Below, piece after piece: positions 59,420 through 63,999 of a DNA stretch of 64,000 nucleotides (position 1 is the stretch's first letter; the number at the start of each line of letters is the position of its first letter). Made by a program: the position numbers and the translations under genes. The stretch lies in the IMG/VR virus record IMGVR_UViG_3300032240_001498, positions 96,001 to 160,000 of that record; one strand, 5' to 3'. The notes beneath the pieces were generated by a model. It was not told where the DNA came from, searched no databases, and saw only the letters and a program-made list of their open reading frames with translations. The DNA is from a virus. Its lineage: Duplodnaviria > Caudoviricetes.

Positions 59420-59448
59420 ATTATACTGAATTATTTAGGTTAAGTCAA
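59420..59448 (-). promoter_or_regulatory. Nested promoters for folE: sigma70 with a TAAATA box inside its spacer
   Basis: TTGACT (59443-59448), 17 nt spacer, TATAAT (59420-59425); TAAATA at 59432-59437. Confidence 0.65.
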
Positions 59449-60228
59449 GCGAAGCAGAGTATTTTTCTTTACGGCCGCATCCAACACATTCATTTGGACA
59501 TTTTGACTTTCTGCATATTTCAATAATGCTGAGGTATCTTTAGGAAAACATGCACCACCGAATCCAAAGGAACCATCAGGCCCTGGAACTTGCATATGAC
59601 TATTGCCGATTCTAACATCGCTTTTAATCATAGACGCAATCTTATTGTAGTCACAATCACTGGCTTTTGCTAGAAAATACAATTCGTTCATAAATGTAAC
59701 CTTAGTGGACATGAATGTGTTGATTGCATATTTTGCCAAACTTGCTTCTGCAATAGTGCAATGGTGAACGTGTTCCAAACCACCTTGTGTTTCTTTAATA
59801 ACACTTTCGGCTAGATCTCTATAGGCTTTAATGCGACCGCCGATGATGGCAAACTTGCCATTGGCATAATCTCTAGCGGCATTAGCGGCAGTTAGAAATT
59901 CTGGCGCATGTACAAGATTTGGATATCGGTTGTTTAATCTAGTATATGTATCAGGTGGTGCTGTGCATTTACTGATAATAACGCCTTCAAACTTGATTAT
60001 TTCCAACTTTGCTAGAATGTCTTCTAAGATGGTAGTATCACAAGTACCGTCCTCGTCTTGCGGAGTAGGAACACAGATAAAGACACCATCACATTGTGAT
60101 AGATCTTGGAATGGATCTCGACCACGTGCTTTGTCATTGTCGACTAATACTAATTGATCTTCATTCCAAAATGCCTGCTTGATAGCGTTGCCTACAAATC
60201 CTAATCCTACAATTCCTATTTTACCCAT
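59440..60228 (-). CDS. UDP-glucose/GDP-mannose dehydrogenase family protein (short form)
   Basis: GLGFVG Rossmann motif, ICVPTP, APEFL, KYAINTF, GFGGACFPKD catalytic Cys motif; lacks the C-terminal domain. Confidence 0.85.
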   Translation of the reverse strand: MGKIGIVGLGFVGNAIKQAFWNEDQLVLVDNDKARGRDPFQDLSQCDGVFICVPTPQDEDGTCDTTILEDILAKLEIIKFEGVIISKCTAPPDTYTRLNNRYPNLVHAPEFLTAANAARDYANGKFAIIGGRIKAYRDLAESVIKETQGGLEHVHHCTIAEASLAKYAINTFMSTKVTFMNELYFLAKASDCDYNKIASMIKSDVRIGNSHMQVPGPDGSFGFGGACFPKDTSALLKYAESQNVQMNVLDAAVKKNTLLRLT

Positions 60229-61316
60229 TTTAATAATTCCCCAGCACTAAAGAAGTGCTCTGTTAAATCGTGTGTTTGTTTTTTTAGCTGTGGAATAAAT
60301 TGATTATAATTGTCCATATACTGCATAATCTTCCCACACAACTCTGGACGATATGCCTTGTATGCTTCAAATGATTCTGTCCATACACTTGGATATCTGA
60401 ATGTATCGTAATACATTTCAGTATAACTAAGTCGATCCGGAACCATTGGAATAGCATCTACAATAGCGCCTTCATAACAACTAATGCCAAGTGTCTCTTG
60501 TAGATTTGCACTAAACACTAATTTAGCTTCGCCTAATAGGTTATGATATTCATTCTTGGTTAGATGTTGATCCTGACATACAACAAATTCATATTGTGGC
60601 AAGTGTTCTTTTAGGTCTCTAAAAATTTCAACTTGTTTCTCAGGAGCGATACGATGTGGAAATAAAATAAGATCACGTTTAGGCATGTTCTTGTACCCTG
60701 TTAACGTAGTATCCATATACTCCATGGGCCAACCGGTGCGTATAATTTTAGTATACTCACCCGCTAAGATCTCACTTAGTTCTTCCTCATACCAGGGATT
60801 TTCAGTTTGGAATCCACCGTTAAGTAATTCTCTATGAAACAACTCAATATGAAAGTTGGTAGCAAAATAGTTATGATCAAATGCATAAAAGAAACCCTGT
60901 TCAGCATGTCTAACCCAAGGTTTATTACCAACTAGGCGTCCTAAGAAATCTTGAGGATCATATGATCCAGCATGCCATAAGCCGTGTGTAGTTACTGGAA
61001 TACCCAGTAACTCGCTCATGTATTTTAAATTTATAATGCCTGGATGCCAAGCATCAGTAAAAATAAAGTGGTCGCCGGGATGAACGGCTCCGTTACAAAA
61101 TAACCTGCCCATTTGTTCAACTTGGCTAGACTTGTATATATTGGTTCCACCAAAATTAAGAAAAGCACCAGGAGTAGTGGCTGTAGGAATATCCGTAGGG
61201 CCAGAGATAACTTGAACATTGTGTCCTGCCTTTCGTAAGAGAGCAGGTACATGAGTCTTCCATTGTCCCGTGTACCTAGTTTCTACTGCTTCTAAATCAA
61301 TTAGAAAAACGGTCAT
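60216..61316 (-). CDS. Glycosyltransferase, GT-B fold
   Basis: FPHRIAPEKQ, QETLGISCYEG donor-binding motif, MVPDRLSYTEMY. Confidence 0.7.
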   Translation of the reverse strand: MTVFLIDLEAVETRYTGQWKTHVPALLRKAGHNVQVISGPTDIPTATTPGAFLNFGGTNIYKSSQVEQMGRLFCNGAVHPGDHFIFTDAWHPGIINLKYMSELLGIPVTTHGLWHAGSYDPQDFLGRLVGNKPWVRHAEQGFFYAFDHNYFATNFHIELFHRELLNGGFQTENPWYEEELSEILAGEYTKIIRTGWPMEYMDTTLTGYKNMPKRDLILFPHRIAPEKQVEIFRDLKEHLPQYEFVVCQDQHLTKNEYHNLLGEAKLVFSANLQETLGISCYEGAIVDAIPMVPDRLSYTEMYYDTFRYPSVWTESFEAYKAYRPELCGKIMQYMDNYNQFIPQLKKQTHDLTEHFFSAGELLKWVK

Positions 61317-61557
61317 TATTATATGGCCTTGGATTCTTACCTAGGTAAGGTTTACGTTCACCGTTTCCACGGTAACCTTTTCCACCATTTTTCCTATAAG
61401 TGAAATCCCTATAGGCCTTAGACTTATACAAGTCTGCTTGGTTGAAATCGATCATTTCAAAACGGCAATGATCGTGCCATGCCTCAAGATCATCAAAGAT
61501 CTTGCTGACTTCAGGCTTCATAGTCAGATATTTGTCGAGCCATTTTGGCTGTGCCAT
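61297..61557 (-). CDS. Hypothetical protein
   Basis: 86 aa with basic/Gly-rich tail. Confidence 0.6.
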   Translation of the reverse strand: MAQPKWLDKYLTMKPEVSKIFDDLEAWHDHCRFEMIDFNQADLYKSKAYRDFTYRKNGGKGYRGNGERKPYLGKNPRPYNNDRFSN

Positions 61558-62001: not shown

Positions 62002-62549
62002 TTGATAATCTCGTCTTTACCATATTGATCCCAACTTGTAAACTTATTTCTATCAAGTAGGTCGTGGAGGTTATGGCACCATACTCCAGGATTTGTAGCG
62101 GCAAAATCTACATCATCAATCTTAATTGTAGCATTATATCCTAGCTGTGTCAAGTAGGGCAATTTAACCGAAATCTGTGGAATAAACTGACGATGTTCGA
62201 CGAGGCCGCTTTCTAATAGACCTTCTACCTGTGCTACATCGAGATCCAATGTACACCAGTATCCTGAATCAAGACATTCTTGGATCATATATTCCCAAGG
62301 AGCCCACCCATCAGCATCGTTAGTTTCAAGTTTAGGAAAACTTTGATTAGCACCAAAGTAGATATGTTTGATACGTTTACTCTCATCAAGCAATGCTTGA
62401 GTATCGTTTGCAATATGCAGTACTGTTTGAGGATCATGTGTGCCCACTACAAACAGAGTTTTCATTCCGTAAGCAGGAGTCTTTTCAATCTCTACGCCTG
62501 TAAAGAACATGATGTCTGTTGCAACACCAGAATCGTAATCTCGTTTCAT
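61998..62549 (-). CDS. Conserved hypothetical protein in the DNA-modification cluster
   Basis: 183 aa; FFTGVEIEKTPAYGMKTLFVVG, HIYFGANQSF, TNPGVWCH. Confidence 0.7.
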   Translation of the reverse strand: MKRDYDSGVATDIMFFTGVEIEKTPAYGMKTLFVVGTHDPQTVLHIANDTQALLDESKRIKHIYFGANQSFPKLETNDADGWAPWEYMIQECLDSGYWCTLDLDVAQVEGLLESGLVEHRQFIPQISVKLPYLTQLGYNATIKIDDVDFAATNPGVWCHNLHDLLDRNKFTSWDQYGKDEIIK

Positions 62550-63124
62550 CTTTCGTTATCCCACCAAAGCCAGCCAATTAAAATATATTTGTCGAGGTTG
62601 GCAGTAATCTGCCCTCGATGAATATGTGTGTATGCAGTTGGGAACAAAATTGTTTTGCCTTTGACTGCGTCAACAACTCTGTTCTGATGCAAAAATTCAG
62701 TTCCGCCATTTGGTACGGTATTCAAATAGGTTAAAAATGTTATTGCACGATCGCAAAACTCATGACCGCCGTCAATATGCCATGCGTGATAACCTGCACT
62801 AGGTTTATACCACTGTATTTGTGGTAAATCACGTATAGTAAACTTTCCAGCGTGTTCATATATTTTAGCATCTGTACAGTATTTGTCAATGAATCCGGAC
62901 AATTCGGTATGATAATTTGGCCATTTAAAATCCTGTGGCTTGCCCAATGTTCTAGCATCACCTAAATGGAAATCAACGCTGTCTTTATAATCTGGTCTAA
63001 TTTGTTCGTCCGAACCTGTAACACCTGGATTGGTTAAACCATTACTATCTGCAAGTCTAAAAAGTCTTAACAGTTCGTCACAGATAGTAATGTCTGATAA
63101 TTGATATTCAGCTATAAAGTCCAT
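62546..63124 (-). CDS. 2OG-Fe(II) oxygenase
   Basis: WHID, LTYLN, GGTEF, LFP, HIHRG, KYI. Confidence 0.85.
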   Translation of the reverse strand: MDFIAEYQLSDITICDELLRLFRLADSNGLTNPGVTGSDEQIRPDYKDSVDFHLGDARTLGKPQDFKWPNYHTELSGFIDKYCTDAKIYEHAGKFTIRDLPQIQWYKPSAGYHAWHIDGGHEFCDRAITFLTYLNTVPNGGTEFLHQNRVVDAVKGKTILFPTAYTHIHRGQITANLDKYILIGWLWWDNER

Positions 63125-63999
63125 TAGGCATTATCAATTTCTAATGCATCGAGTTTGTCTTCGTCAAGCTCTGGCATTGCAGTTACAGGACTTACAGTTT
63201 TATCTAACACTACTTCTTCAGTATCAAATAGACTTGTAAAGTTATTTTCGGCATTACCGCCGCGTAGGCGCATACCCATCATGTTAGACAACATGGGTTT
63301 AGCATCTTCAATCATCTGGAAAGCTTCTGCTTTAGATTTTGTATTGAACAATTCTTCTACAAAACGGCTAAAGTAAAGAATATTACGTGGAACCCAATCT
63401 GAATACTGGTCGCTACCTGTTTCAGAGTCTTTGAGTTTCTTCCAATGACGCCAATCAGGTTGAGCCTTTGCAGTTTCAATGTCCATTAATTGATTAGCAC
63501 GTTGTACAGCAACAATATGGCATTCAACATTATGACCCATCATTAGAGCATAAGCAAAACTATCCCAACTTGTTCTGTTTGGAATCTTATCAAGTTTATT
63601 CTTACGGGGAACAACATGATAGTGTGCCTCATTCAAGTGATCAAATTTAACACCGCCTAATTCTGCATCAGTTTTACGAACACCTAGATCATAATAAGCA
63701 ATATCACCCATTGTTAATCTACGACCAATTGATGATTCAAACGGGAATGGAATATCCGAACCTGACAATGCTTTATTGTCCGGCGCCTTATCCATAATAA
63801 CTGACCAACGTTTAGTTGTATGTTGTGCGTTGGTATATACCAAACCGTGTGCAGTAGCAATAAACGGACTTGCACAGTCAAAACTAATTGTAAGCTCTGG
63901 ATTGATATGCTTACGGATCTGACGTTGGATCAAGGTCAAGTAACATGCCCAGTCTAATTGTGCTGTACCTAAGAAGTGAATCCAGTTCTTACCAGTTAA
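63124..63999 (-). CDS. TGT-fold DpdA-like transglycosylase, C-terminal part (5' end outside the window)
   Basis: Frame open to the window edge: LTGKNWIHFLGTAQLDWACYLTLIQRQIRKHINPELTISFDCASPF. HFLG and SFDxxS resemble TGT/DpdA motifs, and the gene is clustered with folE, queE and queD-like genes. Confidence 0.65.
   Translation of the reverse strand, partial: LTGKNWIHFLGTAQLDWACYLTLIQRQIRKHINPELTISFDCASPFIATAHGLVYTNAQHTTKRWSVIMDKAPDNKALSGSDIPFPFESSIGRRLTMGDIAYYDLGVRKTDAELGGVKFDHLNEAHYHVVPRKNKLDKIPNRTSWDSFAYALMMGHNVECHIVAVQRANQLMDIETAKAQPDWRHWKKLKDSETGSDQYSDWVPRNILYFSRFVEELFNTKSKAEAFQMIEDAKPMLSNMMGMRLRGGNAENNFTSLFDTEEVVLDKTVSPVTAMPELDEDKLDALEIDNA

Follow-up and report, generated by a model that had tools for sequence, protein, structure and literature searches.

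A glycosyltransferase gene linked to a transglycosylase-like gene in a candidate 7-deazaguanine DNA-modification module of phages and bacteria

We describe a gene module in which a GT-B glycosyltransferase (GT) gene is linked to a gene of the tRNA-guanine transglycosylase (TGT)/DpdA type. It lies at the end of a 64,000-nucleotide (nt) stretch of DNA (the window; bases 96001–160000) from the 200,604-bp IMG/VR virus record IMGVR_UViG_3300032240_001498 (Duplodnaviria; Caudoviricetes), and the link between the two genes, which holds for 57 of the 58 transglycosylase-selected phage loci that could be assessed and for all 26 bacterial loci, is the strongest result of our analysis. The locus is very likely a DpdL-type 7-deazaguanine DNA-modification module, in essence the system of phage phiST with one undescribed step added, a GT, and we consider it likely that this GT is a functional part of the module. 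The best reading of the end product is a sugar-bearing deazaguanine in DNA, to which we give roughly an even chance. The completeness of the record was estimated by CheckV at 55%, and because a close relative (G001) spans 353 kb at 98% completeness, the record is best taken as a fragment of a jumbo phage.

Linkage of the glycosyltransferase and the transglycosylase in phages and bacteria

The GT gene (P0002, 366 amino acids (aa); 60216..61316) and the transglycosylase gene (P0001, 547 aa; 63124..64000 in the window and running on to the window-equivalent position 64767, L001 9124-10767) belong to a long gene run on the minus (-) strand, as do all further features of the window given below; only the C-terminal 291 of the 547 aa of P0001 fall inside the window. 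A preliminary description of this DNA had read here a tightly coupled run of eight genes, in the order transglycosylase, 2-oxoglutarate (2OG) oxygenase, conserved protein (P5), T-fold protein, small open reading frame (ORF), GT, UDP-sugar dehydrogenase and FolE, as a deazaguanine module. An ORF check confirmed all eight genes with their positions and strand. Their junctions are small overlaps (1, 4, 4, 20 and 13 nt) or short gaps (12 and 61 nt), so the run is indeed tightly coupled, and as this order is seen again in 80 related IMG/VR loci (the relatives to which counts out of 80 refer below), the arrangement is not one of chance. The core in these relatives consists of a clamp-like gene, the P1-type transglycosylase (the type of P0001), P5, the T-fold protein DpdL, an 86-aa ORF, the GT, FolE, a cupin, a phosphoribosyltransferase and QueE. 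Upstream of the module, beyond the end of the window, lie genes for a family-B DNA polymerase and for a 244-aa protein whose homologue in phage Phosso is annotated as a sliding clamp, which makes the run part of a replication module.

The link between the GT and the transglycosylase was followed through cultured and environmental phages. Among 50,697 phage records, the GT was found in 22 and DpdL in 29; the 17 records with both hold them a few kb apart and fall into five lineages (PA5oct-like, Phosso, ACP17, X1/BUDD and BCSR5). The GT lies next to or near DpdL and a TGT-like gene in the PA5oct-like phages, ACP17, X1, BUDD and BCSR5, with the gene order transglycosylase, GT, DpdL and QueE close by in PA5oct, ACP17 and X1; in Phosso the GT adjoins DpdL and the P1-type gene lies ~170 kb away. 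GT relatives at 31–35% identity likewise occur with DpdL, P1 or P5. A separate set of 80 IMG/VR loci was chosen by the transglycosylase and includes a second phage group with a 400-aa P1. Here the GT was present in 57 loci at a median distance of 1.7 kb, and of the 23 loci without it 22 are cut by the contig end on the GT side, leaving one (L180) truly without a GT and the link intact in 57 of the 58 loci that could be assessed. The second group (L138-L166), with smaller genomes, carries contiguous genes for DpdL, the GT and the 400-aa P1-type transglycosylase, with FolE and a QueE-like gene a few kb upstream. The GT pairs with two different transglycosylase subfamilies. Linkage of GT and dpdA in relatives had been named in the preliminary description as a check that could refute its reading, and it was found in five cultured lineages as well as in the environmental phage and the bacterial loci.

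The pairing extends to bacterial chromosomes. By scanning species-representative genomes, we found the GT at 36–50% identity in the chromosomes of alphaproteobacteria (Pelagibacterium, Devosia, Azospirillum, Ochrobactrum, Aurantimonas, Methylobacterium, Shimia, Sulfitobacter and other genera). A P1-type transglycosylase adjoins it in all 26 loci and DpdL occurs in 7, and in 20 of the 26 an adjoining membrane protein of 4–6 helices gives sub-threshold matches to Pfam Vut_1 (YhhQ family), a family which we take to include the preQ0/preQ1 importer. Loci L109-L133 and L135 hold a three-gene module of this Vut_1/YhhQ-like membrane protein, the GT and the P1-type transglycosylase; modules in Rhodobacterales add a LuxR-type response regulator, a MASE1 sensor kinase, an uncharacterised 585-aa protein and a second GT, and some loci are flanked by resolvases (recombinases), an nSTAND3 NTPase or a VapE-like gene. 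Most bacterial modules consist of GT and transglycosylase without FolE or a T-fold, which ties the GT to the base-insertion enzyme and not to FolE or the T-fold, and therefore weakens both the idea of a pterin glycoside, taken up below, and that of an accidental neighbourhood. The transporter-like gene and the two-component regulator suggest a cellular use of these modules, perhaps in self-marking.

In an accidental neighbourhood, the GT would glycosylate the host envelope or a virion or other phage protein and would owe its place to chance or co-expression. GT4 enzymes often act on lipids, polysaccharides and proteins, the window also contains sugar-activation genes, and in Xanthomonas phages more distant GT relatives have GlmS and a deacetylase as neighbours. 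On the other side stand the frequencies given above, which hold for two transglycosylase subfamilies and many lineages, the occurrence of the sugar-activation genes in only 2/80 relatives, and the GT model, which contains no signal peptide or membrane segment. We therefore regard a target outside nucleic acids as very improbable.

The transglycosylase and the probable deazaguanine pathway

Model and motifs place P0001 in the TGT/DpdA superfamily, and guanine exchange in DNA is predicted for it. The AlphaFold2 (AF2) model (predicted local distance difference test, pLDDT, 83.5) has TGTs as its top Foldseek matches (E ~1e-6, probability 1.0), with the DNA preQ0 insertase DpdA (7UI4) at rank 50, and structural comparison with VIA gave Z scores of 19–20 to TGTs over ~300 aligned residues (root-mean-square deviation ~4.7 A). 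The motifs DSGGYQ (residues 103-108, with D103), LDVP (D148), VLQG (Q196) and FDC (D297) show no variation among 38 phage relatives (35–80% identity), and their residues are also kept in the bacterial P1 relatives; by motif matching, not residue-level superposition, D103, D148, Q196 and D297 would correspond to D102, D156, Q203 and the nucleophile D280 of TGT. Searches by sequence gave no Pfam family for P0001 at E 0.01, no PF01702 match in the whole record, and no PHROG, NCBIfam or PDB-sequence match for P0001, nor a PDB match with its profile. The TGT zinc motif CxCxxC is missing from P0001, which has no CxC or CxxC either. In hhalign comparisons, the P1 family was marginally similar to the DpdA of ACP17 (E 0.038), the DpdA of X1 (E 0.09) and DpdA3 of phiST (E 0.003), and the P1-type is therefore treated here as a separate TGT-like subfamily. 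The gene labels of the preliminary description thus hold for the run with two qualifications: the dpdA-like gene is recognised by motifs and fold only, with no Pfam TGT match, and the dehydrogenase comes without a UDP-binding domain.

As in bacterial Dpd systems and the phage DpdA1 and DpdA2 enzymes, which insert preQ0, the predicted reaction is guanine exchange by a TGT fold, with 7UI4 among the matches of P0001. A further likeness is that the GT/transglycosylase pair is also chromosomal in bacteria, with some loci flanked by recombinase or defence-type genes. P0001 differs in its lack of a Pfam TGT match and of CxCxxC, and no DpdB or DpdC was recognised here. We know of no GT component in the Dpd systems described so far.

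The T-fold protein P0004 (143 aa; 61570..62001; phrog_17812) carries LGTPHRHIF at residues 46-54, which in an alignment with the DpdLs of phiST, ACP17, X1 and PA5oct and with QueDs fits the DpdL signature LxxxHRHxF and not the PTPS/QueD motif. DpdL is a QueD-like T-fold in which LxxxHRHxF replaces CxxxHGH, and is the proposed 7-carboxy-7-deazaguanine decarboxylase (Cui, Hutinet et al., Nucleic Acids Res 2023, PMC10516641). P0004 matched the DpdL of phiST (phiST 31744-32064; E 2e-8) and that of ACP17 (E 2e-38) in tblastn, and shares 54–67% identity with the copies in ACP17, PA5oct and Phosso.

The enzymes that would supply the substrate of DpdL are partly encoded nearby. FolE (GTP cyclohydrolase I, 247 aa; 58635..59378; PF01227 E 2.6e-38; phrog_2197) closes the eight-gene run and was found in 69/80 relatives. 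A QueE-like radical-SAM protein (7-carboxy-7-deazaguanine synthase, 287 aa; 52507..53370; PF04055 E 7e-5) has 31% identity to the annotated QueE of PA5oct (E 8.5e-26) and matches NCBIfam QueE models at E 9e-14 to 9e-11, below their cut-offs. A PF04055 profile search of the record gave no candidate, yet hmmscan of this very ORF matches PF04055 and the QueE models, so that negatives from quick profile scans of this record are weak. With this limit, no match to QueC was obtained in this record, nor in PA5oct or Phosso, and the pathway therefore probably stops at 7-carboxy-7-deazaguanine. QueD is encoded ~50 kb from the cluster in relatives, including the 98%-complete one. A purine phosphoribosyltransferase (166 aa; 56110..56610; PF00156 E 1e-12; NCBIfam xanthine phosphoribosyltransferase E 5.9e-10), present in 54/80 relatives and in the PA5oct cluster, probably recycles the guanine freed by base exchange; alternatively, it could convert the deaza base to a nucleotide. 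The TGT-like fold with its catalytic motifs, DpdL, FolE and the QueE-like gene together bear out the earlier reading of the locus as a deazaguanine module.

FolE and a PTPS-like T-fold are also the first enzymes of the pterin pathway, and tetrahydrobiopterin glucosyltransferases are among the structural matches of the GT (5zer, Z 20.2; 9v0l). FolE, the T-fold and the GT could in principle make a pterin glycoside, like the biopterin glucoside of cyanobacteria. Against this, the cluster also holds QueE-like and TGT-like genes, the T-fold has the DpdL motif and not that of PTPS/QueD, a Z score of ~20 is below those of the generic GT4 matches, and most bacterial modules pair the GT with the transglycosylase in the absence of FolE and T-fold. 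We hold a pterin product to be extremely unlikely.

A close described counterpart of the module is the DpdL/DpdA3 system of phiST. Both have FolE, QueE, a DpdL with LxxxHRHxF and a distant TGT-like enzyme, both come without a recognised QueC, and both lie near replication genes. phiST differs in having no GT, P5, 86-aa ORF, cupin or phosphoribosyltransferase, in having MazG and a kinase-like ATPase, and in the size of its DpdA3 (259 aa), which is marginally similar to P0001. With DpdL and DpdA3 but no GT, phiST serves as a natural control: its DNA has guanine fully replaced by plain 2′-deoxy-7-deazaguanosine (dDG), as determined by liquid chromatography-mass spectrometry (PMC10516641).

The glycosyltransferase and a candidate sugar-bearing base

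The AF2 model of P0002 (pLDDT 94.7) shows a complete GT-B fold of two Rossmann domains and is nearest to retaining GT4/GT5 enzymes; in whole-chain VIA comparisons it matched sucrose-phosphate synthase (6kih, Z 25.6), BshA (6n1x, Z 24.4) and glycogen synthase (2bis, Z 22.6). Across 61 relatives (28–54% identity), the EX7E motif (E274-x7-E282) is conserved, with E282 invariant and E274 kept in at least 90%, and so is the Arg/Lys donor pair R222 and K227 (at least 90%). Because of this conservation, P0002 is predicted to bind a nucleotide-sugar and to be active. P0002 itself does not match PF00534 (Glycos_transf_1); 37 of the 61 relatives do, at up to E 5.5e-9, and the homologue in X1 exceeds the cut-off with 45.5 bits. 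A PDB sequence search with P0002 gave no useful match. The family is large and comprises at least 8000 clusters when grouped at 90% identity, and 1139 when grouped at 50%. As modelled, the fold points to no particular acceptor.

The T4 alpha- and beta-glucosyltransferases (AGT and BGT) and the GT of phage HY126 are GT-B enzymes that place a sugar on a modified base of phage DNA; they use a uridine diphosphate (UDP)-sugar donor after replication and act on a hydroxylated pyrimidine that is already formed as a nucleotide. P0002 matched T4 AGT at Z 18.2 (1y6f) and the HY126 enzyme, an arabinosyl-5-hydroxycytosine GT (9IQZ; PMC13326640), at Z 19.1 (9iqz), BGT not being among the matches listed. 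It differs from these enzymes in lying nearer to GT4 (Z 22–26) and in having EX7E, and this record, like the 98%-complete relative, ACP17 and X1, gave no match to a ThyA-type hydroxymethylase (PF00303), which makes a T4-like pyrimidine acceptor unlikely.

A GT4-type GT-B enzyme that acts on a 7-deazaguanine nucleoside in nucleic acid is known in QTMAN/GTDC1 (PF12038 + Glycos_transf_1), and clusters of this queuosine-mannosylating family match the GT model at a template modelling (TM) score of 0.74. The transglycosylase and the GT might accordingly act on tRNA and make a glycosylated queuosine-like base, as in the mannosyl- and galactosyl-queuosine of eukaryotes. TGTs are the closest solved folds to P0001, and the precursor-transporter-like gene and two-component regulator of the bacterial modules would suit a cellular role in tRNA. 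QTMAN, however, acts on the cyclopentenediol of tRNA queuosine, which could not be made here without QueC, QueF and QueA; its N-domain, PF12038, is unmatched in P0002 and the 61 relatives, and generic GT4 families reach TM scores at least as high as 0.74. The phage genes lie in a replication module beside a DNA polymerase and a clamp, the DNA of PA5oct itself resists cutting at G-containing sites (PMC12191111), and DpdL-type clusters give dDG in the DNA of phiST (PMC10516641). An RNA target is thus quite unlikely.

From the folds, motifs, gene content and linkage above, we infer the following route, including each of its enzymatic steps, DNA as its target and deazaguanine as the acceptor of the sugar. 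FolE, QueD (encoded elsewhere in relatives) and the QueE-like enzyme would produce 7-carboxy-7-deazaguanine, which DpdL would decarboxylate to 7-deazaguanine, and the 547-aa TGT-like enzyme would exchange guanine in phage DNA for this deaza base. The GT, forming a unit with the transglycosylase, would most likely glycosylate the deazaguanine with a nucleotide-sugar as donor, in DNA or before insertion, with P5, the 86-aa ORF and the cupin as conserved helpers, and the virion DNA would end up with a glycosylated deazapurine.

Published work on cultured carriers of the module is consistent with a modified G. The virion DNA of PA5oct is refractory to several restriction enzymes whose sites contain G, and the authors of that study proposed a modified G and noted the QueE and PTPS genes, the base itself not being identified (PMC12191111). 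Expression of dpdL and dpdA from ACP17 in E. coli gave no dDG, and further enzymes were suspected (PMC10516641). ACP17 carries a GT and a P5-like gene between and beside its dpdA and dpdL, and a GT step, if real, could explain the failed reconstitution. The paper on Paride contains nothing on DNA modification. Our literature search found no paper on a sugar-bearing or glycosylated 7-deazaguanine in DNA, in agreement with the preliminary description, which knew of no characterised example.

Several points weigh against a sugar-bearing deazaguanine as the end product. P0002 fits generic small-molecule GT4 enzymes (Z 22–26) better than it fits DNA GTs, and more distant GT relatives lie in unrelated sugar contexts (PhiXhv-12). 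The GT family is acidic, with a median isoelectric point of 5.6; the transglycosylase, which would have to bind DNA, is likewise acidic, so the overall isoelectric point is uninformative. QueD was not found in this 55%-complete fragment by Pfam and by tblastn with the QueDs of four relatives. DpdL occurs without a GT in several phages, such as RHph_I1_18 and phiST, and its activity has been proposed and never reconstituted (PMC10516641). Because 7-deazaguanine has no hydroxyl, an O-glycoside would need an extra step, and no oxygenase is common to all GT-bearing lineages.

The GT could also serve the pathway while the final base in DNA stays sugar-free, as the plain dDG of phiST. Its substrate would then be the free base or some precursor or by-product, with the sugar serving transient activation, solubility or detoxification; or else the GT would be a non-transferring partner of the transglycosylase. 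The small-molecule GT4 enzymes among the top structural matches (BshA, sucrose-phosphate synthase and tetrahydrobiopterin glucosyltransferase) and the want of an obvious O-acceptor in dDG would fit such a role, as would the additional enzymes suggested by the ACP17 experiment (PMC10516641). Yet phiST makes fully substituted dDG DNA without a GT, the bacterial modules mostly have no biosynthetic genes and so tie the GT to insertion and not to base synthesis, and the intact catalytic motifs speak against a purely structural role. We consider a sugar-free end product rather unlikely.

Returning to a sugar-bearing deazaguanine, we tentatively advance a more specific version, which is somewhat doubtful as a whole: the P1 transglycosylase and the GT, in several phage lineages as well as on alphaproteobacterial chromosomal islands, may form a two-enzyme unit that installs 7-deazaguanine with a sugar in DNA. 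Where DpdL supplies the bare base, which offers no hydroxyl, the sugar would be C- or N-linked to the deazapurine ring, and the short dehydrogenase might oxidise the sugar once attached. To our knowledge, such a linkage is without precedent for any natural DNA base, and the natural DNA bases known to us to carry a sugar are all pyrimidines. Glycosylation of a purine analogue would, if true, constitute a new class of DNA hypermodification. DNA of this kind would matter for evading restriction, for how modification-dependent nucleases sense it, and for sequencing and base-calling. Cultured carriers of the module include the Pseudomonas aeruginosa therapy candidates PA5oct and Paride, with DNA that shows G-linked restriction resistance.

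Oxygenases, sugar enzymes and conserved helper genes

For the chemistry of sugar attachment, the preliminary description had proposed that the deazaguanine, in its plain, hydroxylated or carboxy form, is given an acidic sugar. On such a scheme the 2OG-Fe(II) oxygenase (192 aa; 62546..63124; PF13640 E 2e-7; phrog_61 E 3.5e-30) would hydroxylate the deazaguanine, or the carboxy form would be used, and the GT would then add a uronic acid supplied by the dehydrogenase. The three genes are co-oriented and translationally coupled here, and an oxygenase-then-GT logic on a DNA base has parallels in base J and the TET/JBP and GT systems. Another oxygenase-like protein, the cupin at 56576-57088, is core in the phage group and could be cited in favour of this scheme. 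The oxygenase, however, occurs in only 2/80 related loci. BLAST comparison did not find it in the loci of PA5oct and Phosso, the annotation of the ACP17 and X1 clusters does not list it, and the families that recur in bacterial modules do not include it. PF13640 is its sole Pfam match and no match to TET/JBP was obtained, and the substrate here, a purine analogue, would differ from that of the TET/JBP systems. The idea that this enzyme creates the attachment point for the sugar was therefore not borne out.

The dehydrogenase fares little better as a source of an acidic sugar. P0003 (262 aa; 59440..60228; PF03721 E 6e-15, PF00984 E 2e-22), a short relative of UDP-glucose 6-dehydrogenase, keeps GxGxxG (8-13), the TK...MNE stretch and GGACFPKD (224-231) with the catalytic Cys in an alignment to 3gg2. 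The UDP-binding domain PF03720 is absent from P0003 and was not found anywhere else in the 200-kb record. Short two-domain dehydrogenases of this kind (257–283 aa) occur in 40/80 relatives at varying positions, which leaves a uronic-acid donor optional at most. In one relative a full three-domain UDP-glucose dehydrogenase of 414 aa is encoded directly after the GT (L106 9080-10324), a point in favour of the oxygenase and uronic-acid scheme. With the distribution of both enzymes in view, we judge the scheme improbable, and the proposal of an acidic sugar was not upheld.

The window encodes another 2OG-Fe(II) oxygenase (51875-52519; PF13759 E 8e-17; phrog_81) just downstream of the QueE-like gene. 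Next to the GT, the PA5oct cluster also encodes a truncated relative of a sugar enzyme, gp0320 (L002 12416-12934; 172 aa), which retains no more of an epimerase/dehydratase (PF01370 E 6e-7) than the NAD-binding N-terminal part.

The sugar-activation genes of the window encode a PfkB kinase (253 aa; 54420..55181; PF00294 E 1.9e-12) and a cytidylyltransferase-like nucleotidyltransferase (133 aa; 55120..55521; PF01467 E 8e-17), followed by a small cupin (119 aa; 55518..55877). The first two form a split HldE-like pair (54420-55521), matching phrog_7878 ('heptose 7-phosphate kinase/heptose 1-phosphate adenylyltransferase') at E 7e-45. The three genes (54420-55877), found in 2/80 relatives, have the look of an accessory module of nucleotide-sugar metabolism. 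The kinase and nucleotidyltransferase genes, like those for the short dehydrogenase and the 2OG oxygenase, seem to be passengers or optional additions that tailor the sugar.

Three further proteins are conserved more widely. P5 (P0005, 183 aa; 61998..62549) is present in 72/80 relatives and also in Acidovorax phage ACP17, just upstream of its DpdA. It had no Pfam, PHROGs, NCBIfam or PDB-sequence match, nor one with its profile, and the Protein Atlas gave nothing useful; a profile search showed its family to have at least 7092 clusters, all unnamed and without a Pfam domain. The 86-aa ORF P0127 (61297..61557), which overlaps the start of the GT gene, lies directly upstream of the GT in 64/80 relatives and has no family match. 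The 'cysteine dioxygenase'-type cupin P0126 (170 aa; 56576..57088; phrog_4786 E 1.7e-37), with HDH (68-70) and HRIE (118-121), occurs in 68/80 relatives, mostly right after the GT, and was not found in PA5oct, ACP17, X1 or the bacterial modules.

Two observations concern the polymerase side of such loci. Upstream of the polymerase gene in the present record lies a gene for an 805-aa protein (L001 17515-19932; genome 167515-169932) with a cytidyltransferase-like stretch (phrog_3041 E 1.5e-13). A Logan contig (L091, 443-6484) encodes FolE, DpdL, a P5-like protein, a radical-SAM/SPASM protein, the GT and two uncharacterised proteins of ~360 aa, and this module adjoins a UDG-PolA fusion polymerase, a type that has been tied to thymine-modified phage genomes (2026 paper).

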